From an uncultured Gemmatimonadaceae bacterium (GTDB lineage: Bacteria > Gemmatimonadota > Gemmatimonadetes > Gemmatimonadales > GWC2-71-9): 64,000 nucleotides of DNA. A model generated the notes under the pieces. It was not told where the DNA came from. It searched no databases and saw only the letters and a program-made list of their open reading frames with translations. Made by a program: the position numbers and the translations under genes. Within the stretch, counting starts at the first letter, position 1. Every line of letters begins with the position of its first letter. Below are positions 2,646 to 62,714 of the stretch, in pieces. The stretch spans positions 46,393-110,392 of the forward strand of contig CAZXRC010000003.1 in NCBI GenBank assembly GCA_964642475.1. Direction: 5' to 3'.

Positions 2646-3155
2646 ATGCCCGAAGTCAGCGTTACCCGGACCTACCTGGAAATGGGCTCCCCGTCCGATC
2701 TGGTGGCCGAAGGGAGTGCCGGGCCCGAGGTTCGGCTCGACGCGATGAGGCCGTGCCCCTGGCACCTCTACCGGTACCTGTATGTCGAGGTGGGGCGGGC
2801 GTACCACTGGAAGGACCGGCTGCCGTGGACCGAGGCGCAGTTCCGGGAATGGCTGTCAGGGCCGAGCCGGATCTGGCTGCTCTCGGTGGGGGGAGCCCCG
2901 GCGGGGTTCTTCGAGCTGCGGGGACATCCCGACCGGAGCCAGGAGATCGCCTACTTCGGACTGCTGCCGGAGTATCAGGGGCAAGGGCTCGGCAAGTTCC
3001 TGCTGACGCGGGCGGTGGAGGAGGCCTGGGCGCTGGGGCCGAGCCGGGTGTGGCTGCACACCTGTACGCTGGACCATCCGGGGGCACTGCCTAACTATCT
3101 CAAGCGGGGGTTCCGCAAAGTGGGCGAGGAGGTGTACGTCACGACGATTTCTTGA
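2646..3155 (+). CDS. GNAT family N-acetyltransferase
   Basis: This is the C-terminal 169 aa of the 876-aa ORF, starting at ATG 2646. It carries the acetyl-CoA motif QGQGLGKFLL and ends ...YLKRGF. The upstream 700 aa of that ORF is antisense to the VWA gene. Confidence 0.8.
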   Translation: MPEVSVTRTYLEMGSPSDLVAEGSAGPEVRLDAMRPCPWHLYRYLYVEVGRAYHWKDRLPWTEAQFREWLSGPSRIWLLSVGGAPAGFFELRGHPDRSQEIAYFGLLPEYQGQGLGKFLLTRAVEEAWALGPSRVWLHTCTLDHPGALPNYLKRGFRKVGEEVYVTTIS

Positions 3156-3166
3156 TTCTCTCTCAA

Positions 3167-3312
3167 CTGCTTTCCACGGATTCAGGGGACTGGAACGGAT
3201 CCCCGTTGGTTCTGCGGGATGGACCGCGGCTCAGGTGGACAGTCCGAGGCGAGTGTTACGCCTGACGAGGCAGCGTGAATCCGTTCCGATCTCCTGAATC
3301 CGCGGAAAGCAG
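3167..3312. repeat. Long imperfect inverted repeat filling a convergent intergenic region (REP/MITE-like stem-loop, possible bidirectional terminator)
   Basis: Arm 3167-3202 matches the reverse complement of 3277-3312 at 31 of 36 positions. The spacer is 74 nt. The element sits between the stop codons of the GNAT gene and nth. Confidence 0.7.
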
Positions 3313-3332
3313 TCTACCGGCTCCGCCCGGCA

Positions 3333-7903: not shown

Positions 7904-9211
7904 TCAGCTGCCTCTCGTTCCGAGGGTCACCTGCACCCGCTGCTCCACCCCGTCGCGGAGGATCCGGATCTCCACCACGTCGCCCGGCCGGTGCCCCCGC
8001 AGGGCGCTGGTCATGCCCTGCAGATCGGGTACCCGGGTCTCGCCGATCTGGACGATGATATCGTTGCCTTTGAGGCCCGCCTTCTCGGCGGGGCTCCCGG
8101 CGCGGACCCCGGTCAGCCGCACCCCGCCGGGACTGTCCGACATGTCGGGCACGGTGCCGAGGTACGCTCCATAGCCCGACGCCGACGAAGCAGACGAGGC
8201 GGAAAGCGCCGGCGGGGGCACGTTGACGAAGGTGAGGGCCTCGCGTCGGCTCCCCAGGGCCCGCACGATCGAGGCGGTGAAGTCCGCCACCTTGGCCAGG
8301 CCGTCGGCGTTGACCTTCTCCCAGTCGTCGGTGGTCCGGTGATAGTCCTCGTGCAGGTCGGTAAAGAGGTGCAGGACCGGGAGTCCCGCGCCGTAGAACG
8401 AGGACTGATCGCTCCGGCCCCACCCGTCGCCCGAGGCCTTGAGGTCGAAATGCGCCTCGACGTTGAGCGAATCGAGGATGCCTCCCAGTTCCTTGCCGGT
8501 GGCGACCCCGTAGATGAGCAGCCGATCGTTCCGGAGCCGCCCCACCATGTCCATGTTGATCATGGCGTAGGTGCGGGACAGCGGGAAGACCGGATTCTTG
8601 ACGTAATAGTCGGACCCCAGGAGCCCCGATTCCTCGCCGCTGAAGGCGATGAACACGACCGTTCGGCCCGGCGGGGTCTGGCGCAGCTTCTTGGCGATGT
8701 GGATCAGGGCGCTCACGCCCGAGGCGTTGTCATCGGCGCCGTTGTGAATCTGCCCGGTGCTGTCGGGATCGAGCGAGCCGAAGGCTCCGGTGCCCAGGTG
8801 ATCGTAGTGCGCTCCCACGATCACGATCTCGTTGCGGAGGTTGGGGTCCTTCCCGGGGAGTACCCCGATCACATTCTTGCCGATCACGCCGCCGATCCCG
8901 GCATGTACCGCCGCCGGCGCGGTGGCCGAGACGGTGAAGGGCTGGAACCAGCCCTGGGGCGCGGGCCGGAGGCCCACCTGCTTGAAGCGCCGGGCCAGAT
9001 AGGCCGCGGCACTGTCTGCTCCCGGCGAACCGATCAGGCGGCCCCGGAGGCTGTCACTGGAGAGGAAGCGGACATCGCCCAGCAGGGAGACCGGGTCGAC
9101 CACGGTCTGCGCCTGGGCCGGCGGGGCCAGGGCGGCCCAGACCAGCATCAGGGGGGCACAACGACGGTACGAGGGGTGCATATGGGGCAGAAGCTTAAGG
9201 GCGGACCCCAT
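7904..9211 (-). CDS. M28 family metallopeptidase with C-terminal PDZ domain
   Basis: M28 metal-ligand context (GAHYDHLG, GADDNASG, FSGEESGLLGS) and a PDZ-like C-terminus (GVRLTGVRAGSPAEKAGLKGNDIIVQIG). An alternative ATG at 9181 gives a cleaner signal peptide, MHPSYRRCAPLMLVWAALAPPAQA. Confidence 0.88.
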   Translation of the reverse strand: MGSALKLLPHMHPSYRRCAPLMLVWAALAPPAQAQTVVDPVSLLGDVRFLSSDSLRGRLIGSPGADSAAAYLARRFKQVGLRPAPQGWFQPFTVSATAPAAVHAGIGGVIGKNVIGVLPGKDPNLRNEIVIVGAHYDHLGTGAFGSLDPDSTGQIHNGADDNASGVSALIHIAKKLRQTPPGRTVVFIAFSGEESGLLGSDYYVKNPVFPLSRTYAMINMDMVGRLRNDRLLIYGVATGKELGGILDSLNVEAHFDLKASGDGWGRSDQSSFYGAGLPVLHLFTDLHEDYHRTTDDWEKVNADGLAKVADFTASIVRALGSRREALTFVNVPPPALSASSASSASGYGAYLGTVPDMSDSPGGVRLTGVRAGSPAEKAGLKGNDIIVQIGETRVPDLQGMTSALRGHRPGDVVEIRILRDGVEQRVQVTLGTRGS

Positions 9212-13341: not shown

Positions 13342-13722
13342 ATGAAGCCCGGCTCACTCCGCCTTCTCCTGGGAACGGCCCAGCTGGTCGTGCTGCTCGG
13401 CATCCAGCTGGCCGAGGGGACCGGCGTGCACCGTTGCCCGGAGCACGACGCCGGCATCGGGGCGGTCTCGGGCGACGAGATGAACGGCCATCAGGGGTTG
13501 GGCCAGGCGGGCCACCACCCCGGCCACGGCCAGCCGGCCCACGCCGCCTGCCACTGCGTCGGTCCCTGTTCCACGGTCACGGCCATGCACCGGGCGGCCG
13601 ATGCTCCCGCCATCGCCCTCGGCCCTCGCCGCTACGCCCAGCCGGGCTCCTACGACGTGGTGGCTCTCCGAGACACCGTCCGCCTCCTTCCCTTCGCCCT
13701 CGGTCCCCCTCCCACCGCCTGA
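13342..13722 (+). CDS. Small secreted His/Cys-rich protein (reminiscent of DUF2946-type proteins found upstream of TonB-dependent metal receptors)
   Basis: N-terminal signal-like segment, then an HHPGHGQPAHAACHCVGPC cluster. It lies 68 nt upstream of the TonB-dependent receptor on the same strand. Confidence 0.55.
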   Translation: MKPGSLRLLLGTAQLVVLLGIQLAEGTGVHRCPEHDAGIGAVSGDEMNGHQGLGQAGHHPGHGQPAHAACHCVGPCSTVTAMHRAADAPAIALGPRRYAQPGSYDVVALRDTVRLLPFALGPPPTA

Positions 13723-13790
13723 TTCGTGACCGCTGACGGTCCGGCCCCATCGGCCGGGCGTCGCCGCGTTCCTCCAACATCAGGCTGATC

Positions 13791-15869
13791 ATGCCACGCC
13801 AGCGCCGTGCGGCGCACGCCCTCGCGCGTGCGACCGTGCTGCTGGGCCTGGGCGGCGCTTCCGCCGTCCAGGCCCAGCAACCAACTCGCGATACCTCGGC
13901 CGTGGAGCTGGAGACCATCACGGTCACGGCCCCCGGTCCCCGCGCTACCCCGCCGGTCGAGCTGTCGGTCGACGTGCCGGCGAAGGTGGTGGCGCGGCAG
14001 CAGAGTGCCAACGCCTACGACCTGATCCGGCGCGCCGCCGGCATCGAAGTGCACGAGCAGGGGCAGGGGCCCGGCTGGGCCTCGGACGTGGTGATCCGGG
14101 GCTTCACCTCGGATCACTCGTCCGATGTCCTGCTGCTGCTCGACGGCGTGCCGATCAACCTGCCGATCCACGGACACGTCGAGGGCTATTCCGACTGGAC
14201 CATCCTCTCGCCGGCAGCGGTACAGGGTATCCGGGTCATTCACGGGCCGGCGAGCCCGCTCTACGGCAATTTCGCCGTCGGAGGCGCGGTGGAGGTGAAC
14301 ACCGCCCAGGATGCCGGTGGGATCGCCGGCTCGGTGGGTGGATCGAGCGACGGCGACGCCTCGGGGTGGGTCCGGGGCGGCCGACGGCACGAACGCTCGG
14401 GTTACCTCTTCGCGGTCCAGGGCGAGCGGGGCGAGGGCTGGCGTGACAACAGCAGCAGCGGGTTGGGCCACGTCGCGCTGCGGGGCTGGCGGCGGCTCGA
14501 CGATCGGACTCGGATCGAGGGGGGACTGACCGGATACGGCTCGGGGTGGGACTCGCCCGGCTTTCTCTCGGTCGCCGACTACAACGCGGGACATCTCGAA
14601 CGCGCGGCCGACCCGACCGACGGTGGGTCGAGCGGGCGCGGGATCCTGCATGGCCGGGTGGCGCGGAGCCTTGCCGCCGGTCGCTCGCTGGATCTGCTGG
14701 GCTGGGTCCAGGTGGCCCGCTCCACCGTGTTCCTGACCGTGCCGGAGGACGGGGCGGCGGAGCAGCAGGAGGAGCGCGACCGGCGATCGGCGGTGGGGTT
14801 CAGCGGCTACTGGCGGGTGCCGGCGGGAAGTGGCGAAACCTGGGCCGGAGTAGGAGGTCGGGCCGATTGGGACACCTACGACCTGTACCATACGGTCGGC
14901 CGCGAACGGGTGGCCACCACCCAACGTACCGACGGCCGCTACCAGGAGGCCAACGCCTACATCCGCAATCGCGGCCTCGCCTGGTCACGGCTCCAGTACG
15001 ACTTCTCCCTCCGGGCCGACCTTGTCCGCTACGCCGCCCGGGACCGGACCGTTCCCGACTCGAGGTTGCGCGATAACGTCACCGCGGTCCTGAGCCCCAA
15101 GTTCGGGGCCCGCTACCTCCTCGGGGGGGGCTGGAGCGCGGTCACGTCGATCAACCGCGGGTTCCGCGGGCCGGTCGGCGTCATCGAGGATGTCCACCAG
15201 CCGCTGGTAACCGCCTGGGCCAAGGAGCTCGGCATCGAGCTCGAAACCGATCGAATCTCGGCCCAGCTTTCGGCGTTCCAGACCGACGTCCGGAACGAGA
15301 AGATCCTGGATCCGGTCACTCTCGAGATCTCCGACGCCGGCCAGAGCCGGCGCCGGGGGTTCTCGGGACAGATCGGTGTCGCGTTGACGCCCCGGTTGCG
15401 GATCTCGGCCGAGGGGACGTTCAACGATGCGAAAATCACGGGCAGCGGTCGCGGATCGTCCGTCGGGCTCCGAGCCAGTCTGGCCACCGACTCCGTCGTC
15501 GGCTTTCCCGTTCCCCCGCTGGCCTATCATGTCGAGCCGTTGAGTCCGGGGTCGCACATCCCGGGGGTGTCCCGCTACCTCGGCCGGGTCGAGGCGGAGT
15601 ACCGGGTCACGGAGCGGGTCGAGCCCCGGGTGTCGGTCCGTTTCGCGGGGCCGTTCACCCCCATCGGGGAAGATGGGGTTCGAACCAAAGCCTACGTGGT
15701 CGCCGATGTCGGCGCGTCGATCGGCCTCACGCCGCGCACCACGCTCGATATCGAACTGCAGAACCTGCTTGACACGAAGTACCCGGAGATCCGCGCTTCC
15801 GGGTTCCTCAATCCGGGCACGCCGCGCACCCTGCGCGCCGCGGTCCGCTTTTCTCCCGCAACTCTCTGA
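13791..15869 (+). CDS. TonB-dependent outer-membrane receptor
   Basis: Signal peptide ending AVQAQQ, plug-domain motifs (ITVTA..., RGF.S...VLLLLDGVPIN), and a beta-barrel C-terminus ending ...RAAVRFSPATL. Confidence 0.9.
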   Translation: MPRQRRAAHALARATVLLGLGGASAVQAQQPTRDTSAVELETITVTAPGPRATPPVELSVDVPAKVVARQQSANAYDLIRRAAGIEVHEQGQGPGWASDVVIRGFTSDHSSDVLLLLDGVPINLPIHGHVEGYSDWTILSPAAVQGIRVIHGPASPLYGNFAVGGAVEVNTAQDAGGIAGSVGGSSDGDASGWVRGGRRHERSGYLFAVQGERGEGWRDNSSSGLGHVALRGWRRLDDRTRIEGGLTGYGSGWDSPGFLSVADYNAGHLERAADPTDGGSSGRGILHGRVARSLAAGRSLDLLGWVQVARSTVFLTVPEDGAAEQQEERDRRSAVGFSGYWRVPAGSGETWAGVGGRADWDTYDLYHTVGRERVATTQRTDGRYQEANAYIRNRGLAWSRLQYDFSLRADLVRYAARDRTVPDSRLRDNVTAVLSPKFGARYLLGGGWSAVTSINRGFRGPVGVIEDVHQPLVTAWAKELGIELETDRISAQLSAFQTDVRNEKILDPVTLEISDAGQSRRRGFSGQIGVALTPRLRISAEGTFNDAKITGSGRGSSVGLRASLATDSVVGFPVPPLAYHVEPLSPGSHIPGVSRYLGRVEAEYRVTERVEPRVSVRFAGPFTPIGEDGVRTKAYVVADVGASIGLTPRTTLDIELQNLLDTKYPEIRASGFLNPGTPRTLRAAVRFSPATL

Positions 15870-17083: not shown

Positions 17084-17799
17084 CGGCACATGAGTGGTTC
17101 ATCGAACATCGCAGCGCACTCGTCGCCCGCGCGCTTGACCCGGACGAGGAGCGGCTCTTCCGCGAGCATCTCCCCGGTTGCGCCGAGTGCCGCACCGAGG
17201 TGGACCGGCTGGAGCGGGACCTGGCCTGGCTTCCGATGGGGGCCGCCCCGGTGACCGTGCGGCCGGGACTCACCCGCCGCCTGGTGGAAGGCGCCATCGG
17301 ACGGCGGGCCGGGAGCCGGCGAGTGGGGCTCCTGCCGGCCGCGCTCGCGGCCTCCCTGGTGCTGGTGGCCGGCGGATGGCTCCGGGAGCGGAGGCAGTTC
17401 CGTGCCGAGCGGGAGGCGCTCCGTCAGGAGGTCGCGATGGTGCGCGATACCCTGGGGATTATTCAGAGCGCCGCGAAGGTCCGCTACGCCAGCATCACCC
17501 GCGGCGGGCACCAGGGCGGCCTGGTCATCTTCGCGGACGAACGGACCCATCGATGGAACGTGGTGGTCTATGGCCTCCCCGCGCCGGCCCCCGGCGAGGT
17601 CTGCCAGTTCTGGTTCATCACCGACGAGGGAATGGTACGCGGCGTCGAGGTCCGGACGACGCCGCAGGGACCGGCTTTCCTGACCCTTCCGATGCCGCCG
17701 CGGGGTGGCACGGTAATGGGCGCGGCCCTGACGATCGAGCCGGCCGGCTCCAGCGGCGATCGCCCCCAGGGGACCGAGCTGGCCCACCTGATGCTGTGA
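17080..17799 (+). CDS. Anti-sigma factor (zf-HC2 N-terminus, RskA-like extracytoplasmic C-terminus)
   Basis: ATGA overlap with the sigma gene. HLPGCAECRTEV zinc-finger motif, a central transmembrane segment, and a C-terminal GAALTIEP motif. Confidence 0.8.
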   Translation: MTAHEWFIEHRSALVARALDPDEERLFREHLPGCAECRTEVDRLERDLAWLPMGAAPVTVRPGLTRRLVEGAIGRRAGSRRVGLLPAALAASLVLVAGGWLRERRQFRAEREALRQEVAMVRDTLGIIQSAAKVRYASITRGGHQGGLVIFADERTHRWNVVVYGLPAPAPGEVCQFWFITDEGMVRGVEVRTTPQGPAFLTLPMPPRGGTVMGAALTIEPAGSSGDRPQGTELAHLML

Positions 17800-23595: not shown

Positions 23596-25446
23596 CTACG
23601 TCGAGGGAGGTGTCACCACCGCGCGAATCACGTCCAGCGCCACGCTGGCCCGCCCCATGGGGGCGGCGACCTGCACACCCCGGACCCTGGTCTTCACCGC
23701 GGTGACCATCTCGCGGGCGATCCGCACCCCCTCCGCCAGCCCCTCCTCCTTGCCTCTGGCCGAGGCGGCGCGCATCCGGTCAAGGATCGCCTGCGGTACC
23801 GTCACGCCCGGCACTTCGTTGGCCAGGAACTCGGCGTTGCGCAGGGACACCAGTGGCCAGATCCCGGCAATGATCGGCAGCTTGAGATGGGCGGTCCGCT
23901 CCAGGAACCGGTCCAGCTGATCCAGGTCGAACACCGGCTGGGTCATGGCGAACTCGGCCCCGGCTTCCACCTTCCAGGTGAAGCGGCGAAGCTCCCGGTC
24001 CGGATCGGGTGAGGCCGGGTTCACTCCCACGCCGAGCACGAAGCTGGTCTTGCCGCCGAGCGCGTTGCCGCCGGGGTCGAGACCGCGATTGAGGCGGTGC
24101 ACCAGGTTGGTCAGCCCGATGCTGTCGATGTCGAACACCGCGGTCGCGTCGGGATAGGGCCCCATCTTGGGCGGATCGCCCGTGACGATCAGCAGGTTCC
24201 GGATCCCGCTGGCCGCCGCGCCCAGGAGGTCGGACAGCATGCCAAGGAGATTCCGGTCGCGGCAGGCATAGTGCACCACCGGCTCGAGACCGACCTCCCG
24301 CTGGATCAAGAGCCCGGAGAGCAGCGCGCCCATCCGGCTCTGGGCCCGGGGGCCGTCGGGGACGTTCACCGCGTCCACCCCGGCTGCCTTGAGCTCCCGC
24401 ACCTGGTCGAACATCGGGCGGGGGTCCACGCCCTTGGGCGGCACGATCTCGACCGAGGTCACGAATTCGCCCCGCGCCAGCTTGGCCCCGAAGTGGGAGC
24501 GCTCCGCCAGCGGCACCGGGTCGGCCATGGTCACCAGCGACGGCACCGCGGTATAGCTCGCGCCGTGGCGCGGCGCCACGCTCTTCACGAACCCGGTGAG
24601 CGCCTTGATGTGCTCGGGAGTGGTGCCGCAGCACCCGCCGATGAACCGGGCCCCAGCCTCCACGATCCGGCGGCCGAACTCCGCCATGTACTCGGGGCTC
24701 GCCATGTAGATCTTGCGGTCGCCCACGTCGCGGGGCAGACCGGCGTTGGGCTGGGCCGAGATCGGGACCGTCACGACCCGGGCCAGCTGCTCCACCACCT
24801 CGAGCACTCCGTGCGGTCCGACGGAGCAGTTCACGCCCACCACGTCGGCGCCCATGAGTTGCAGCGCCGGGCCGAAGGTCGCGGGCTCGGTGCCGTAGTA
24901 GGTCTTGCCGTCGGTGCCGACGGTCATCTGCGCGATGATGGGAAGGTCGCTGCGGCTGCGCACCGCGTCGATCGCCGCGTGGATCTCCTCGACGTCGCTG
25001 AAGGTCTCGAGGATGAACCCGTCGACACCGCCCTCGAGGAGGCCGTCGACCTGGCGGGCGAAGGCGGCGCAGGCTTCCTCCCGTGAGGTCTCGCCGAAGG
25101 GCTCGATCCGGATGCCGAGCGGACCGATGGCGCCCGCCACCGCCGCCTTGCCGGTCGCCGCCTCGCGGGCGAGACGGGCCGCCGCGGCGTTGATCTTCTC
25201 GGTGTCCCCCGCCAGGCCGTGGGTGGCGAGCTTCACCGGGTTGGCCCCGAAGGTATTGGTCTCCAGCAGCTCCGCGCCCGCCTTCACATACTCGCGGTGG
25301 ATGTCGCGAATGAGGTCGGGCTGCTTGAGAGCCAGCTCGTCGTAGCAGACGTTGAGGAACACGCCCCGGGCGTAGAGCATGGTGCCCATGGCGCCGTCGA
25401 AGACGTGGGTCCGGCCATCCTTGATGAGTTCGCTGAGTGTCGGCAT
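23596..25446 (-). CDS. yitJ: Bifunctional homocysteine S-methyltransferase / 5,10-methylenetetrahydrofolate reductase (YitJ-like fusion)
   Basis: N-terminal Hcy-binding domain (FDGAMGTMLY, zinc site [10 protein letters not shown]) fused to a C-terminal MTHFR domain. At 616 aa it has the same architecture as B. subtilis YitJ. Confidence 0.88.
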   Translation of the reverse strand: MPTLSELIKDGRTHVFDGAMGTMLYARGVFLNVCYDELALKQPDLIRDIHREYVKAGAELLETNTFGANPVKLATHGLAGDTEKINAAAARLAREAATGKAAVAGAIGPLGIRIEPFGETSREEACAAFARQVDGLLEGGVDGFILETFSDVEEIHAAIDAVRSRSDLPIIAQMTVGTDGKTYYGTEPATFGPALQLMGADVVGVNCSVGPHGVLEVVEQLARVVTVPISAQPNAGLPRDVGDRKIYMASPEYMAEFGRRIVEAGARFIGGCCGTTPEHIKALTGFVKSVAPRHGASYTAVPSLVTMADPVPLAERSHFGAKLARGEFVTSVEIVPPKGVDPRPMFDQVRELKAAGVDAVNVPDGPRAQSRMGALLSGLLIQREVGLEPVVHYACRDRNLLGMLSDLLGAAASGIRNLLIVTGDPPKMGPYPDATAVFDIDSIGLTNLVHRLNRGLDPGGNALGGKTSFVLGVGVNPASPDPDRELRRFTWKVEAGAEFAMTQPVFDLDQLDRFLERTAHLKLPIIAGIWPLVSLRNAEFLANEVPGVTVPQAILDRMRAASARGKEEGLAEGVRIAREMVTAVKTRVRGVQVAAPMGRASVALDVIRAVVTPPST

Positions 25447-25448
25447 TC

Positions 25449-25555
25449 AGTTCCGCGTTCCGAGTGCCGAGTGCCGAGTGGTCGCGAGGCGAACGGGGGT
25501 ATGCCGAGGTCCACCGGCACGCCAGCCCCGCTCGGAACGCGGAACCCGGAACTCG
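25449..25555. repeat. Inverted arrays of tandem heptamers (GTTCCGN/GTGCCGA) forming a long stem-loop between metH and the yitJ-like gene
   Basis: 25450-25480 reads gttccgc gttccga gtgccga gtgccga gtgg. 25531-25555 carries three GTTCCGN units on the opposite strand. There is perfect 15-bp complementarity between 25450-25464 and 25531-25545, with a 66-nt spacer. Confidence 0.8.
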
Positions 25556-25559
25556 CAGC

Positions 25560-29258
<3,699 letters not shown>

Positions 29259-29263
29259 GTTCA

Positions 29264-29386
29264 GGCCGTTGGCCGTTGGCCGTTGGCCATCGGTGTTTCG
29301 GTACAGGTTTGCGCGATCCAACTCCTGGTCGAACCCATCATCGCATCCTCTTCGCCGTCAGCTCCAACGGCCAACGGCCAATGGCC
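29264..29386. repeat. Inverted arrays of tandem GGCCGTT heptamers forming a long stem-loop in the metH leader
   Basis: (GGCCGTT)x3 at 29264-29284. The reverse complement of 29364-29386 is ggccatt ggccgtt ggccgtt gg, which matches at 22 of 23 positions. The spacer is 77 nt. The proximal arm ends 5 nt before the metH ATG. Confidence 0.8.
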
Positions 29387-29389
29387 AGT

Positions 29390-29424
29390 AAGAAACCCCC
29401 GGTTGCGCGACGGCACCCGGGGGG
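29390..29424 (-). terminator. Terminator-like hairpin downstream of the yggT/DUF167 genes
   Basis: The minus strand reads CCCCCGG-(14 nt)-CCGGGGG followed by TTTCTT. It lies about 75 nt after the DUF167 stop. Confidence 0.4.
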
Positions 29425-29499
29425 ATCGGCCGTTTTAGCACTTGTTTAACGTGGCTGCAATAGGCGCAAAGCACCACGACGTCCGTTGTGCCGCGAAAC

Positions 29500-29814
29500 C
29501 TACACCCGCACCGGACCCTCGCCAAGGCCGAACCGCCGACAGATCTCCGCCGGGCTCAGACCCGCCACCTCCACTGTCTTGCGTCTGGAGGTGGCGCCGC
29601 TGGTGATCGCGAGGGCCGATCGCGCGCAGCGCAGGGTGTCGGCCAGGAACCGGATCAGGGCCTCGTTGGCGGCGCCGTCCACCGGCGGTGCGGTGAGCCG
29701 GACCCGGAGTGCCTCCCCATGCAGTCCCTCGATCGCGTTGCGGGAGCCGCGGGGCTGGATGTGAAGCGTGAGCCGGGCTCCCCCGGCGACCGGCACCAGC
29801 CAGGCGCCCGACAT
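29500..29814 (-). CDS. DUF167 (YggU) family protein
   Basis: The C-terminal 104 aa of the 188-aa ORF, from ATG 29814. Typical pattern: L.V...PGA..N.I......L.V.L.APPVDG.AN. It overlaps the yggT stop by 1 nt. Confidence 0.8.
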   Translation of the reverse strand: MSGAWLVPVAGGARLTLHIQPRGSRNAIEGLHGEALRVRLTAPPVDGAANEALIRFLADTLRCARSALAITSGATSRRKTVEVAGLSPAEICRRFGLGEGPVRV

Positions 29815-30389
29815 CAGATCGCGCTGAGCAGGAACCAGCGGGCCAGGGACAGCATGAGGTAGGCCACGAGCGGGCTGAAATCGAAGGGACCGATCGGAGG
29901 CAGGACCTTCCGGAGGGGCTCGATGATCCAGTCGGTGAGCCCGTAGACGATCCGCATCGGCCGGGAGTAGGGCGAGATGCCGAACCAGGAGGCGATGAAC
30001 CGCACGAAGAGCGACAGGATCATCAGCGAAAAGACGCCGTTGATCGCGAAGGCGATGATGCCCCATGGCCCGGCCGCCGCGCTGGCGCCGAGGTTGACGA
30101 TGACGCCGATCAGCCAGTCGGCAAGCGCGATGAGGGCCAGCCCGCCCAGCACCGCGACCCAGAAGAAGTAGTACGGGGCTCGGGAGGGGTTGGCACCGGA
30201 GCGGAGCGCTCGCCGCTCGAGCGGTCGGACGAAGGGCTCGCCCAGCCGGCGGGCGAAGCGGGGGAGAAGGCCGAAGGGGGGCAACTTGCCGTTCTGGACC
30301 AGCCAGTGGGTGCCCGCCACCACGGCCGCCACGGCGAACAGCCCGAAGACCACCACCCGGATGGCCAGGGTCAGGTAGACCAGGATCAT
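29814..30389 (-). CDS. YggT family membrane protein
   Basis: 191 aa with multiple transmembrane helices and a YggT-type repeat organisation. It is followed by DUF167, as in many genomes. Confidence 0.8.
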   Translation of the reverse strand: MILVYLTLAIRVVVFGLFAVAAVVAGTHWLVQNGKLPPFGLLPRFARRLGEPFVRPLERRALRSGANPSRAPYYFFWVAVLGGLALIALADWLIGVIVNLGASAAAGPWGIIAFAINGVFSLMILSLFVRFIASWFGISPYSRPMRIVYGLTDWIIEPLRKVLPPIGPFDFSPLVAYLMLSLARWFLLSAI

Positions 30390-45215: not shown

Positions 45216-45308
45216 CAGGCACCTGCCGGGGAGTCGGGGGGAAGGACGAAAAGGCGCGAGCCGCGTCCGGCGCGGGTCAGGGTGTCCAGGTGTGGTGTGG
45301 CGAGAGGG

Positions 45309-45356
45309 GAGGCCCGCGGCGGGAGCGGTTTGCCTCCACTCCCACCGCGGGCCTCA
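45309..45356 (-). terminator. Strong GC hairpin overlapping the cutA stop codon (terminator or processing stem-loop)
   Basis: An 11-bp stem (45309-45319 pairs with 45346-45356) plus an inner GGGAG/CTCCC pairing. There is no clear T-tract. Confidence 0.35.
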
Positions 45357-45758
45357 CCTCTCGGCCACCTCGGCTCGCACCCAGGCGAGATAGGCCGGGT
45401 GGCCTCCGACCACGGGAGTCAGGACGATCTCGGGAACTTCGTAGGGATGCAGGGCCCTGATCCGTTCCACCAACGCGGGTCCCTGGCTGGCCGTGGTCTT
45501 GCAATGCACGTACCACTCGTCCGCCTGTTCGATCCGGCCCTGCCAGCGATAGCTGCTCCGGATCGGTCCCTGGCGCTGGGCACAGGCGGCCAGTCGGAGC
45601 TCCACGACCGTCCGCGCCACGCGGTCGGCCGCGGCCTCGGAGGGGAGGGTGGTGGTGACGATGACCGTGTCGGCGGGGCCCGAAAACGCCGAGGAGCCGG
45701 CCGGCGTTGCCCCGGAATCAGGGGCATCACCGGCCGGCTCCTCGGGAGTCCCCGCCAT
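45354..45758 (-). CDS. cutA: Divalent-cation tolerance protein CutA
   Basis: CutA1 core ...LAACAQ...I.S.YRWQG.I....E......KT...HPYEVPEI. The N-terminal ~30 aa is low complexity, so the start is uncertain. Confidence 0.85.
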   Translation of the reverse strand: MAGTPEEPAGDAPDSGATPAGSSAFSGPADTVIVTTTLPSEAAADRVARTVVELRLAACAQRQGPIRSSYRWQGRIEQADEWYVHCKTTASQGPALVERIRALHPYEVPEIVLTPVVGGHPAYLAWVRAEVAER

Positions 45759-47030: not shown

Positions 47031-47044
47031 GACTGTGGGCCATA

Positions 47045-47160
47045 GGCAATGAGCCGTAAGCCGTAAGCCGTAAGCTCCTGCGGTGCACCTTGAGTCCGGG
47101 TCCGAATCGGCGGGACCTTCAGGTGACAACGTTACTGCTTAGGGCTTACGGCTCATCGCC
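47045..47160. repeat. Inverted arrays of tandem GCCGTAA heptamers forming a long stem-loop between convergent genes
   Basis: (GCCGTAA)x3 at 47053-47073. Arm 47045-47068 matches the reverse complement of 47137-47160 at 22 of 24 positions. The spacer is 68 nt. Confidence 0.8.
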
Positions 47161-47184
47161 TGCGGTTTCTGGCCGACCACCTCC

Positions 47185-54944: not shown

Positions 54945-54978
54945 AGTCGCGCGAGCTGACCTCGCACTATGGGGACTA

Positions 54979-54999
54979 GCGGGGAGCGGGGAGCGGGGC
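54979..54999. repeat. Tandem heptamer (GCGGGGA)x3, followed by a small GC hairpin
   Basis: gcgggga gcgggga gcggggc at 54979-54999. A hairpin GGGCCGG-GAGG-CCGGCCC follows at 55000-55017. Confidence 0.75.
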
Positions 55000-55126
55000 G
55001 GGCCGGGAGGCCGGCCCCGTGCCTCGCAGGCGGGCTGGTGGTGATTCGGACGCGATCAGCGTAATGTGGGAATGCCGGCCGGCCGCAGCAGTCCGGACCG
55101 GCGGGCGGTCTACCCTGGAGGATGCA

Positions 55127-60507: not shown

Positions 60508-61953
60508 GGGAGAACCCTCGGCCGGCACCGCGCGGTAGACGTAGTCCGGCAGGGTGTCCGGCTCGCGCTGGGCCGCGAGGATGAGATCGTGCCGGGGGGA
60601 GAGGCTGCACACCGGGTCGGTGTTGGCGGCGTCGCCGGTGAGCGCAAAGGCCTGGCAGCGACAACCGCCGAAATCCTGCGCCTTCCGAGGGCAGCTGCGG
60701 CAGGGCTCCTTCATCCAACTCTCGCCCCGGAAGGCATTGAAGATGGGCGACGCCTCCCAGATCCAGCCGAGGGGATGCTGGTTCACGTGGACCATCTCGA
60801 GCCCCGGGATCTGGGTGGCGCCGTGGCAGGGCAGGGCCCGCCCGTCGGGCGTCACCAGCACATAGACACTGCCCCATCCGCCGTAGCAGGGCTTGGGGTA
60901 CTGCTCGTAATAGTCCGGCAGTACGTAGATCACCTGCATCTGTCCCTTGTACTTGCGGATCGCCGCCTCGGCCACAGGGCGGGATCGTTCGACCTGCTCC
61001 CGGGTCGGCATGAGGGCATCGCGGTTCTTGAGGGCCCAGCCGTAGTACTGAGTGTTGGCCAGCTCCACCCGGTCGGCGCCGAGACTCGCCGCCAGGTCGA
61101 TGATCTGGCCGAGGTGATCGAGGTTGGCCCGGTGCAGCACCACATTCACCGAGAAGGCGAGGTCCAGCGCCTTCACCAGCGCCGCCGCCTCGTACTTCTG
61201 GCGACCCAGCTTGATCCCCGCGATCCGGTCGGCGATGGCCGGGTCGATGTCCTGAAACGAGATCTGCACGTGATCGATCCCGGCAGACTTGAGTCGCTCG
61301 GCCCGGGCGCGGGTGAGCCCCAGGGCGGAGGTGACCAGCGTGGTGTAGAGCCCGATCTCGCGGGCGTGGGCGATCAGCTCCTCCAGGTCCTTCCGCACCA
61401 GCGGCTCGCCACCGGAGAGGCCGAGCTGCATCACGCCCAGGTCGCGCGCTTCGGAAAAGACCCGCTTCCAGTCGGCGGTCGACAGTTCCGCCTCGGCCCG
61501 GGTCATCTCGAGCGGGTTGGAGCAGTAGGGGCAATGCAGCGGGCAGCGGTAGGTGAGCTCGGCCAGCAGGGTCGTGGGGGTCCGGTGCGGCACCGGGGTC
61601 CGCGAGGCCGTCGCGACCGGCGCCGGGGCCACCGTCGGCCCGATGCCGCTGGTCACCCGGACCTCGCCGGTCACCGCGCCGGGGGTGGCCCCGGGCCAGG
61701 TCACCATATCGCGGCGTACCATCAGCGCCAGGTACTCGGCCACATCGGCGCGCACGTCGATGCGGTAGCGGCGGCTCAGCTCGGCGCTGATCTGCTCCAG
61801 GGAGCGGGTCCCGTCGCACAGTTCCAGGATGGCTTTGCCGCTGTCATTGAGGAACATGGCGCCCTCGGGATAGAGCAGCACCGGGCGCTGTCGCACCCGG
61901 TCGAACCCGATGCGGGCGAGGCGCCACAGACGGGGGTTGGTCGCGGCGCTCAT
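60502..61953 (-). CDS. pqqE: PqqD-PqqE fusion (peptide chaperone + radical SAM/SPASM enzyme)
   Basis: The N-terminal ~90 aa are PqqD-like (VLLYPEGAMFLNDSGKAILELCDG). A linker follows, then the radical SAM motif CPLHCPYCSNP and a C-terminal SPASM Cys cluster. ATGA overlap with the pqqC stop. Confidence 0.9.
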   Translation of the reverse strand: MSAATNPRLWRLARIGFDRVRQRPVLLYPEGAMFLNDSGKAILELCDGTRSLEQISAELSRRYRIDVRADVAEYLALMVRRDMVTWPGATPGAVTGEVRVTSGIGPTVAPAPVATASRTPVPHRTPTTLLAELTYRCPLHCPYCSNPLEMTRAEAELSTADWKRVFSEARDLGVMQLGLSGGEPLVRKDLEELIAHAREIGLYTTLVTSALGLTRARAERLKSAGIDHVQISFQDIDPAIADRIAGIKLGRQKYEAAALVKALDLAFSVNVVLHRANLDHLGQIIDLAASLGADRVELANTQYYGWALKNRDALMPTREQVERSRPVAEAAIRKYKGQMQVIYVLPDYYEQYPKPCYGGWGSVYVLVTPDGRALPCHGATQIPGLEMVHVNQHPLGWIWEASPIFNAFRGESWMKEPCRSCPRKAQDFGGCRCQAFALTGDAANTDPVCSLSPRHDLILAAQREPDTLPDYVYRAVPAEGSPL

Positions 61954-62714
61954 TCCCGGTAGGCGTTGTGGATCGTGTCGATCATGGACCAGAGCATCTC
62001 CAGCTTGAACGCCAGCGCCTCGAATGCCTGCCGTTGGGTCTCCACGGTGGTGCAGTGGTTGCGCACGATGGCCAGGCCGTGGCGCACATCGCGGGGGGCC
62101 TGCACCAGCCGGCTCTTGAAGTAGTCCAGCCCTTCGGGCGGAATCCACGGGTAGTGGCGCGGGAAGGATTCGATCCGCTGGGCGTGGATCCCGGGGGCGA
62201 ACAACTCGGTGAGCGAGGAGGCGCAGGCCTGCACCCACGGCCGGGACTTGCAGAACCAGACGTACGACTCGCAGATGAGACGCACCGCCGGGAGCACGTG
62301 GCGCTCGTCTTCCATCTCCTCCCGCGGTACTCCCAGCGCGATGCCGAGGCGGGTCCACAACTCGATCCCACCTTCGCCCTCGCGAGTACCGTCGTGGTCC
62401 ACGATGCGCTGGATCCACTCGCGACGCACCGCCGGATCGGGGCAGTTGGAGAGGATGGCGCCATCCTTCCGCGGAACCACCCGTTGATAGGCCAGCCGGT
62501 TGGCCACCCATCCCTGGAACTGCCGGCGGGTGAGCTTGCCCTCGTACATGAGCTTGTGAAACGGGTGTTCGACGTAGTAGAGACCGTGGAAGGAGCGGAG
62601 AGCGGTCTCCAGCTCCTCGGGGCTGAGGGGGTGCTCCAGCGTCGGCAACTCGATCCGGTAGTTCCGAGTTCCGAGTTCCGAGTTCCCCGTTTCGACTGTT
62701 GCGCTCATCTCCAC
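61950..62714 (-). CDS. pqqC: Pyrroloquinoline-quinone synthase PqqC
   Basis: YYVEHPFHKLMYEGKLTRRQFQGWVANRLAYQ and the rest of the PqqC fold. The 5' end is uncertain because the first ~20 codons contain the GTTCCGA tandem repeat. A TTG or CTG start near 62650 is possible. Confidence 0.9.
   Translation of the reverse strand: MEMSATVETGNSELGTRNYRIELPTLEHPLSPEELETALRSFHGLYYVEHPFHKLMYEGKLTRRQFQGWVANRLAYQRVVPRKDGAILSNCPDPAVRREWIQRIVDHDGTREGEGGIELWTRLGIALGVPREEMEDERHVLPAVRLICESYVWFCKSRPWVQACASSLTELFAPGIHAQRIESFPRHYPWIPPEGLDYFKSRLVQAPRDVRHGLAIVRNHCTTVETQRQAFEALAFKLEMLWSMIDTIHNAYRE
62661..62686. repeat. Tandem heptamer (GTTCCGA)x3 plus a partial unit at the pqqB-pqqC junction
   Basis: gttccga gttccga gttccga gttcc at 62661-62686. 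This is the same unit as in the 25450 element. No inverted partner was found nearby. Confidence 0.8.

Follow-up and report, generated by a model that had tools for sequence, protein, structure and literature searches.

A predicted SAM-II riboswitch and a heptamer-array hairpin in the metH leader of a Gemmatimonadales bacterium

Several described systems resemble one part or another of the RNA leader upstream of metH, the gene for cobalamin-dependent methionine synthase, in a stretch of 64,000 nucleotides (nt) from an uncultured Gemmatimonadaceae bacterium (the window). This leader combines a predicted SAM-II riboswitch (SAM, S-adenosylmethionine) with a long hairpin whose two arms are tandem arrays of a 7-nt unit. 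Overall, the account that we favor with moderate confidence is that an old SAM-II riboswitch has been joined by a younger hairpin insertion, which belongs to a nonspecific family of tandem-array palindromes.

Repetitive extragenic palindromic (REP) sequences and bacterial interspersed mosaic elements (BIMEs) are abundant extragenic palindromes that reside between the genes of one operon or between convergent genes and can stabilize upstream mRNA. REPs have a conserved sequence and are copied by REP-associated tyrosine transposases (RAYTs), and REP doublets forming hairpins (REPINs), in which two inverted repeats surround a spacer, are replicated as whole units. The elements described below are likewise extragenic imperfect palindromes between genes and have a similar total size, but tandem arrays make up their arms, each loop is unique, and no single conserved sequence unites them in the ~265 kb sampled. 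Miniature inverted-repeat transposable elements (MITEs) also have inverted arms, whereas the present elements share no internal sequence and are not flanked by a consistent target-site duplication. Short tandemly repeated repetitive (STRR) sequences of heterocystous cyanobacteria consist of tandem 7-nt units in noncoding DNA, with few fixed units. To our knowledge, an inverted-pair hairpin architecture is not a defining feature of STRR sequences, which are found in a different phylum.

Heptamer repeats close to start codons have been described in two other settings. The 5' untranslated region (UTR) of Haemophilus influenzae hmw1A carries a heptamer-repeat hairpin whose cleavage by RNase III raises expression, and the hairpin is needed for changes in repeat number (PMC12721329). 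Only the left arm of that hairpin is the repeat (ATCTTTC, at least 10 copies) whereas the right arm is G-rich, and the system is confined to a single phase-variable adhesin locus of a pathogen (PMC12721329). The metH leader is similar in having a tandem 7-nt repeat within a long predicted 5'-UTR hairpin just upstream of a gene. It differs in that both arms are arrays of three to four units, and in that the architecture recurs at many loci with different units and is known here from sequence. Furthermore, the unit and copy-number differences found between relatives are species-level rather than strain-level. The second setting comprises the TAACTGA direct repeats of Beggiatoaceae, cyanobacteria, and Bacteroidetes, which are intergenic, lie mostly a few nt before starts that lack a Shine-Dalgarno (SD) sequence, show indels in 7-nt steps between strains, and have been proposed to act post-transcriptionally (PMC4679880). 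One unit is used genome-wide in direct orientation, with a single inverted set among 170 (PMC4679880). The arrays in the window similarly end 5 nt (metH) or 2-4 nt (the next gene) before an SD-less ATG, but they are built from several units, almost always occur as inverted hairpin pairs, and are also found at the 3' ends of genes.

SAM-II riboswitches of metA, metX, and metZ leaders in Alphaproteobacteria provide the closest comparison for the other half of the leader. In Sinorhizobium meliloti, SAM-II riboswitches act on both termination and translation, the latter across a terminator and from a start that lies 74 nt beyond the SD sequence (PMC9373788). The metH leader resembles these examples in its above-threshold score, in the conserved core UUGCAGCCACGUUAAACAAGUGCUAAAA that is visible in its alignment to the Rfam family RF00521, in its location before a methionine gene, and in the terminator-like hairpin that follows. 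It departs from them in its host, which is a member of the Gemmatimonadota rather than the Proteobacteria, in the gene controlled (metH), in a weak U-run, and in the 123-nt repeat hairpin that one subclade carries between the expression platform and the start codon.

A SAM-II riboswitch candidate upstream of metH

The leader features are given below in their order on the minus strand.

29500-29502, minus strand: stop codon (TAG) of the DUF167 gene, followed by a 12-nt spacer
29414-29487, minus strand: predicted SAM-II (SAM_alpha, RF00521) aptamer (Rfam cmscan)
29390-29424, minus strand: G+C-rich hairpin CCCCCGG...CCGGGGG (stem 29424-29396) and then UUUCUU, a probable terminator-type expression platform (sequence; minimum free energy (MFE) fold)
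29364-29387, minus strand: 5' arm of the array hairpin, UGGCCAUUGGCCGUUGGCCGUUGG on the mRNA (sequence, inverted-repeat search, Tandem Repeats Finder, fold)
29287-29363, minus strand: loop of the array hairpin, 77 nt of unique sequence (inverted-repeat search; BLAST of loops)
29264-29286, minus strand: 3' arm of the array hairpin, (CCAACGG)n on the mRNA, CCAACGGCCAACGGCCAACGGCC (sequence, inverted-repeat search, Tandem Repeats Finder), followed by UGAAC and the metH ATG

The aptamer is the sole match in the window at Rfam gathering thresholds. It reaches 42.8 bits, above the gathering score of 36 (E = 2.7e-6 for the whole window), and covers the full model, positions 1-79, which contains no pseudoknot. 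The same family was found above threshold, at 40-54 bits, in 13 of 14 related Gemmatimonadota loci (loci are designated here by L numbers). Just downstream of the aptamer is metH in the window and 12 relatives, and metF-metH in L003. The original prediction, which had been made from the sequence alone, reported no SAM-II signature in this leader, and these scores overturn that statement. It had also read the hexamers TTGCAG-N17-TAAAAC (29432-29460) as a sigma-70-like promoter, but they are part of the RF00521 aptamer core, and a promoter scan returned no promoter-like site. The methionine/SAM sensor of metH is, by covariance model and gene context, a SAM-II riboswitch that is predicted to bind SAM. 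No description of SAM-II in Gemmatimonadota was found in the searchable literature.

The terminator-like hairpin that had been noted downstream does exist, and it most likely serves as the expression platform of the riboswitch rather than marking the end of the upstream gene. Every relative keeps the stem, and a run of 5-8 U residues and then the metH start usually come next. A simple terminator scan did not call the hairpin at 29390-29424, because its loop exceeds 8 nt and its U-run is weak. The aptamer and this hairpin are almost invariant in a seven-way leader alignment, and everything downstream diverges.

Pairing between the 3' tail of the aptamer and a downstream anti-tail can be drawn in several relatives, specifically GCUAAAACG with CGUUUUAGC in L005 and L087, and AAAACGGC with GCCGUUUU in L088. 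In the more distant relatives, the anti-tail stretch overlaps the terminator. The corresponding pairing in the window comprises only 5 bp (ACGGC with GCCGU). The complementarity in relatives points to the usual OFF-switch logic, by which SAM binding would hold the tail GCUAAAACGG in the aptamer, the downstream G+C-rich hairpin would form, and metH would be turned off, as expected from the family. In the absence of SAM, the tail could instead pair with the downstream complementary stretch. SAM-dependent termination would be the primary control of metH. As a separate observation, the tail GCUAAAACGGCC (29428-29439, minus strand) can also pair at 10 of 12 positions with the end of the 5' array arm, GGCCGUUGGAGC (29361-29372, minus strand).

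The array hairpin and its family

The heptamer-array hairpin is real, as had been claimed for it, and far from what chance would produce. Tandem Repeats Finder reports unit GGCCGTT with period 7 at 29264-29288 (3.6 copies, 100% match) and unit CCAACGG with period 7 at 29364-29387 (3.4 copies, 94% match). An inverted-repeat search pairs 29264-29286 with 29364-29386, two 23-nt arms located 77 nt apart that match at 22 of 23 positions (96% complementary). The 14-mer GGCCGTTGGCCGTT has six matches in the window with up to two mismatches, five of them inside this hairpin, whereas shuffled sequences average 1.1 matches and none of 100 reached six. The 132-nt sense RNA folds at -62.8 kcal/mol versus -42.1 +/- 3.6 kcal/mol for shuffled controls (z = -5.76), and none of 200 controls was as good. 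No Rfam family (cobalamin, S-box, or other riboswitch) matches the hairpin even at E values up to 10, and the loop has no second copy in the ~2 Mb of DNA compared.

The 3' arm ends at 29264 and the metH ATG occupies 29258-29256, leaving the expected gap of 5 nt (UGAAC) with no SD-like motif of its own. Homologues of 1232-1234 amino acids (aa) support the start at 29258, including one of equal length (1232 aa) that is 100% identical over the best local alignment. This start is therefore preferable to that of a longer open reading frame (ORF), as had been argued. The supposed ATG of the longer ORF at 29321 is a TTG codon, and the claim that the array would be read in frame there as 10 residues is correct. 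The location of the hairpin between the riboswitch and the ATG suggests that it is transcribed.

Related leaders reveal how old the hairpin might be. With the MetH N-terminus as query, the best matches come from Gemmatimonadales metagenome-assembled genomes, at no more than 81% identity in a species-representative collection. Closer relatives, at 83-88% identity, are present in the protein database, and the contigs of six of these are L081-L086; the closest relative available is 88-89% identical. Among the metagenome matches listed for the MetH N-terminus, most are from distant taxa (best 76%), and none has a hairpin-bearing leader. The state of the leader in the close relatives is as follows.

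Window: metH-leader array hairpin present, z = -5.8
L082, L085, and L086: present, z = -4.7 to -6.6
L084: present, decayed, z = 0.18
L083: absent, with a short leader and a good SD sequence
L081: leader of ~100 nt, no arrays

The expectation that structure at this position would be conserved among relatives holds in part. Four of the six close relatives keep the hairpin, but the loops cannot be aligned apart from an SD-ATG motif, and the hairpin is absent from L083, L081, and the outgroups. The leaders of L083 and L081 place an SD-like motif at the usual spacing from the start. No array was detected in the leaders of L001, L002, L004, L005, L021, L053, L088, L118, and L168, where the metH start lies ~5-60 nt after the terminator. 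A neighbor-joining tree of MetH places L082, L084, L085, and L086 in one subclade and the window, L081, and L083 in another, with the hairpin-less outgroups outside both. This placement suggests that the hairpin was gained at the base of the clade and underwent two later losses or decays. Its carriers are five lineages with 84-91% MetH identity, spread across the two subclades; L085 and L086 have metH elements of 139 nt that are 96% identical. When 29264-29286 through 29364-29386 (29264-29386, ~123 nt) is taken out of the window leader, GGGGGUUUCUUAC joins UGAACAUG to give the compact terminator-then-ATG arrangement of the outgroups. Judged from these comparisons, the heptamer hairpin is a younger insertion between the terminator U-run and the start codon.

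The metH hairpin is not alone in the window or among its relatives. Additional copies are listed here.

25447-25557, minus strand: element B, a second array hairpin, (GNGTTCC)n ... (CTCGGNA / CGGAACN)n, MFE -58.7 kcal/mol, z = -2.9
47044-47161, no strand assigned: element C, (AGCCGTA)x3.4 / (TTACGGC)x3.1, MFE -68.4 kcal/mol on the plus strand and -67.2 kcal/mol on the minus strand, z ~ -6
62660-62686, minus strand: direct array only, (GGAACTC)x3.9 on the sense strand, of the same unit family as element B (Tandem Repeats Finder)
L082 9320-9435, L084 4295-4415, L085 3510-3640, and L086 565-685: array hairpins between yggT and DUF167

Element B is the analogous hairpin that had been reported before the next methionine-cycle gene. 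It spans the gap from the metH stop (25562-25560) to the next ATG (25446), ends 2-4 nt before that ATG, and offers no SD-like motif. Orthologues of element B with other units are present in L082-L086. L081 and L168 lack the element, and their metH stop overlaps the next start. Element C resides between convergent genes for PAP2 and saccharopine-dehydrogenase-like proteins. The relatives carry array hairpins between yggT and DUF167, between metH and the next gene, after kdpD, and elsewhere.

Such arrays are a distinctive trait of this lineage. In the window, perfect period-7 arrays of at least three copies reach a density of 7.8 per 100 kb, as opposed to 0.08 per 100 kb across 1.18 Mb taken from loci of other phyla; among array periods of 5 to 12, none but 7 is enriched. 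A control for array density, consisting of 563 kb of mostly unrelated metagenome loci, contains two arrays, both in loci with a SAM-II core. The window and L082-L086 together contain ~25 period-7 segments when arms are counted separately (~20 of them in the relatives), and most have an inverted partner 40-80 nt away. Distant Gemmatimonadales have octamer arrays instead, with units GGGCGGAC, GGGAGCTA (10 copies), and GGGAAGTC (6.75 copies). In L003, 8-nt units such as (GGGCGGAC)n form the same array-loop-inverted-array architecture (8739-8850, 13702-13840, and 17248-17352), whereas L004 7588-7670 and L005 13707-13760 are direct 8-nt arrays for which no inverted partner was detected. An octamer array is present at the junction of metH and the next gene in both L003 and L005.

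Placement of the elements is regular. The 5' arm typically begins at the upstream stop codon or no more than ~14 nt from it, often as TGAGTTCC, and 0-20 nt separate the end of the 3' arm from the next ATG. The yggT and DUF167 genes overlap as TGATG in the window (29812-29816, minus strand), and four relatives have an array hairpin exactly there; in L086 its 3' arm supplies the first ~12 codons of DUF167. Empty sites are stop/start overlaps, both at this junction in the window and at the metH/next-gene junction of L081 and L168. No consistent target-site duplication emerged when filled and empty sites were compared.

In contrast to their placement, the sequences of the elements vary greatly. 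At least five unit types occur in the 64-kb window, including GGCCGTT, NGTTCCG, AGCCGTA, and AGCGGGG, and the relatives add others. Certain arms recur, with the GTTCCGN family found in at least eight places and GGCCAAC also at L085 10714-10755, but likeness between family copies is limited to the arms. When 11 loops were compared by BLAST with ~2 Mb, the only matches were the loops themselves and a single close orthologue. The lack of a second copy for these loops indicates that the elements are not copied as units, which argues against the mobility typical of MITEs and REPINs; an origin of the loops as MITE or filler DNA was rejected on the same result. Element B has unrelated loops in L085 and L086, and its 3' arms, (CTCGGAA)3 and (CGCGGAA)4, lie opposite nearly the same 5' arm, a pattern that points to array turnover by homogenization and not by strictly compensatory changes. 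In just 6 of 20 elements is the sense RNA more stable than the opposite strand, and thus the sense-strand fold shows no sign of being selected; RNA-level selection expressed as strand asymmetry was discarded accordingly.

The metH hairpin is therefore a member of a Gemmatimonadales family of intergenic tandem-array palindromes that shows no methionine specificity, because copies also reside between yggT and DUF167, after kdpD, and between convergent unrelated genes. No description of this family was found in the literature searched. Of the two interpretations in the original prediction, the generic REP-like option agrees with the occurrence of the architecture at unrelated and convergent genes, with the varied units and unique loops, and with the loss or decay of the metH copy in close relatives. 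A structural translational switch specific to methionine genes is not supported, since the elements are not confined to such genes.

Certain arrays fall outside the common hairpin pattern. The (GGAACTC)x3.9 array lies within the N-terminal extension of a PqqC-family ORF (61950-62714), before the Pfam domain (residues 43-246). Gain or loss of one 7-nt unit would shift the frame of this ORF, and the array could thus switch the gene on or off or force the use of another start. At 54978-55000, (AGCGGGG)x3 is followed by a G+C-rich palindrome and has no inverted array partner. Several contigs end in or near arrays (L084 1-59, L085 10576-10755, and L168 1-23), and the L085 end carries four different adjacent heptamer arrays, including (GGCCAAC)x6. 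Contigs that end at arrays suggest that these repeats break assemblies and are under-counted.

The genes that surround the leader are given next.

25560-29258, minus strand: metH, cobalamin-dependent methionine synthase, 1232 aa (Pfam on homologues: PF02574, PF00809, PF02607, PF02310, and PF02965)
23596-25446, minus strand: fused homocysteine S-methyltransferase/methylenetetrahydrofolate reductase (MTHFR) gene downstream of metH (Pfam PF02574 and PF02219)
29500-29814, minus strand: DUF167 (YggU) gene (Pfam), with its stop 12 nt before the aptamer and its ATG overlapping the yggT stop (TGATG)

The order yggT, DUF167, metH, and fused homocysteine methyltransferase/MTHFR is common to the window, where it was assigned with Pfam, and L081-L086. 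The G+C content of the window is ~0.69. An SD-like tetramer lies 4-20 nt upstream of the start in 29 of 62 genes called in L081-L084, and therefore SD-independent initiation is seemingly common in the clade. Other palindromes also occur in the window. Its longest inverted repeat (3166-3208 with 3271-3313) has 43-nt arms, 84% complementarity, and a 62-nt spacer, and is located just after an ORF ending at 3155; with no clear 7-nt period, it may be a decayed family member or a different element. Two near-perfect palindromes lie close together at 45301-45363 and 45689-45745; their 28-nt arms are 89% complementary, and their loops measure 7 and 1 nt.

Explanations for the hairpin beside the metH start

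In the account that we favor, the arrays most likely grow and become homogenized through slippage and intra-palindrome template switching at the DNA level, and the insertions are probably tolerated in that the closed stem rejoins the flanks. Once transcribed, duplexes of 20-30 bp (~23 bp for metH) would most likely function in REP-like or RNase III-type processing or stabilization. The duplex beside the metH start would also occlude the region just upstream and hinder direct initiation, in which case ribosomes may begin at the SD-ATG motif of the loop, pass through the 3' arm while translating a short ORF, and then initiate again at the metH ATG, which has no SD sequence.

A more austere explanation, possible but doubtful, grants the hairpin no role in RNA. 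It would be a selfish or neutral product of slippage and quasi-palindrome template switching that is kept in harmless intergenic gaps. Much of what was found among the relatives is in keeping with this: arrays of 7-8 nt are a trait of the lineage, units change within arms, each of which is homogenized separately (element B in L085 and L086), loops change fast, losses occur, the strands are symmetric in stability, and arrays spill into coding N-termini, as in the pqqC-like gene of the window and DUF167 of L086. However, neutrality fits poorly with the strikingly regular placement from stop (<=~14 nt) to start (0-20 nt) and with the retention of the metH copy in five lineages (84-91% MetH identity) of two subclades. 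Moreover, a 23-bp duplex beside a start codon is unlikely to be without effect.

Another possibility, on which we place somewhat less weight, is that metH translation is coupled to the ORF in the hairpin loop, with ribosomes melting the 3' arm, stopping at or near the ATG, and reinitiating. The ORF in question has the following layout.

29261-29350, minus strand: candidate upstream ORF, with GAGGA at 29350-29346, ATG at 29341 (or 29338), 26 codons, and TGA at 29263-29261 (sequence)

It reads through the 3' arm and ends 2 nt short of the metH start. In each of the five hairpin leaders, the 5' portion of the loop contains an ATG preceded at 4-6 nt by an SD-like motif (GGAGG, GAGGA, or GGAGA), and the ORFs that open there have 14-29 codons and run through the 3' arm. 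Their stop codons lie at these positions.

Window: TGA 2 nt before the metH ATG
L085 and L086: stop overlapping the metH ATG (TGATG)
L082: stop 6 nt before the metH ATG
L084: stop 19 nt before the metH ATG

Shuffled loops produce the arrangement of SD, ATG, and stop in 4-7% of trials per lineage, which would multiply to ~7e-6 if the lineages were independent, a joint probability that is overstated because they share ancestry. The SD-ATG is the sole recognizable motif in otherwise diverged loops, and the hairpin-less relatives have their SD sequence at the normal place, as coupling would lead one to expect. If coupling occurs, metH output could vary with array copy number, as a 7-nt slip shifts the frame relative to the stop. 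On the other hand, the encoded peptides are not conserved, units such as CTAACGG alone place stops in three frames, the motif may be left over from the SD-ATG that metH had before the insertion, about half of the local genes likewise have no SD-like motif, and element B has no comparable upstream ORF. Translation of the upstream ORF and its coupling to metH are accordingly best treated as a prediction. Attenuation by a leader peptide with Met codons was rejected, in that the upstream ORFs are not Met-rich and their peptides are not conserved.

A bolder proposal, which we consider improbable, makes the array hairpins lineage-wide organizers of operon mRNAs and assigns the metH arms, the aptamer, and the upstream ORF to a second, translational layer of SAM control. 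Each hairpin would span the distance from an upstream stop to a downstream start in replacement of an ancestral TGATG overlap, and folding would keep stop and start adjacent, thereby preserving coupling and offering a duplex to RNase III. The metH arms would then be amplified switching sequences of the riboswitch, given that AACGGCC is contained in GCUAAAACGGCC and that GGCCGUU resembles the anti-tail GCCGUUUU of relatives, and the translational layer would stand in for the weakened terminator U-run. The 3'-arm unit AACGGCC is indeed a 7-mer of the aptamer tail, which is invariant in seven of seven aligned leaders, hairpin-less ones included. By a rough estimate, such identity would arise by chance in a few per cent of cases, and it may hint at a local origin of the repeat.

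Dedicated translational control of metH, with element B acting likewise on its own gene, is unlikely. Such a stem would hide the ribosome site and be opened by a ligand, temperature, or a protein. The idea draws on the 5-nt distance between the 3' arm and an ATG without its own SD sequence, the 2-4 nt that separate element B from the next ATG, the great stability of the stem, and the persistence of arms in five lineages despite loop divergence. Yet equal architecture is found at unrelated genes and between convergent ones, and metH is retained where its hairpin is lost (L083) or decayed (L081 and L084, the latter with z = 0.18). Furthermore, there is no conserved loop that could bind a ligand, no Rfam match on the hairpin, and no stability bias toward the sense strand, and the riboswitch already supplies methionine/SAM sensing. 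CsrA-type GGA sites were rejected as well, as they fit the CGGAAC arms of element B and not the metH arms.

Least probable of all is a nonautonomous mobile element, a MITE or a REPIN moved by a transposase such as a RAYT: the total length of 105-135 nt with two inverted arms and a spacer resembles REPINs, arms recur at several loci (GTTCCGN in at least eight places; GGCCAAC), and empty sites appear as TGATG overlaps in the window, L081, and L168, but the loops are unique with no copying of units, no clear target-site duplication is present, and at least five different units occur within 64 kb. Integron attC sites, which have inverted core sites with a variable center and lie between co-directional genes, were also dismissed, as the core motifs do not fit and the flanks are syntenic housekeeping genes.

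Several points weigh against the combination of an old riboswitch and a nonspecific insertion. The family census covers ~265 kb around one locus from 15 genomes, and the SAM-II assignment draws solely on the score of a covariance model and on genomic context. Precisely the leaders that bear the array hairpin have a degenerate U-run (UUUCUU, AUUUCGCGUUU, and CUGUCUGUU) behind the riboswitch hairpin, and control of metH in these leaders may have shifted away from simple termination. In addition, the arms and the loop SD-ATG have been kept although the loops cannot be aligned, which could reflect selection for a metH-specific function. As for the upstream ORF that our account invokes, the SD-less metH start is weak evidence for it, because about half of the neighboring genes also have no SD sequence.

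Meaning for Gemmatimonadota leaders

The structure noticed upstream of metH is real, but it is not a methionine-specific regulatory hairpin, and the predicted sensor of SAM is the adjoining riboswitch. For annotation, this means that metH of a Gemmatimonadales lineage lies behind a predicted SAM-II riboswitch, a class known mainly from Proteobacteria. The array palindromes, with arms of 7- or 8-nt units, occupy intergenic gaps and evolve rapidly; they seem to interrupt metagenome assemblies, and some extend into the N-terminal coding region of a gene. Should these hairpins function in RNA, Gemmatimonadota would have in them a counterpart of REP elements or of RNase III sites in the style of phage T7, and they would offer a natural series for studying how long duplexes beside start codons are tolerated. 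If they have no such function, they would provide a clean case of repeat-driven, nonadaptive leader evolution that can be mistaken for regulation.

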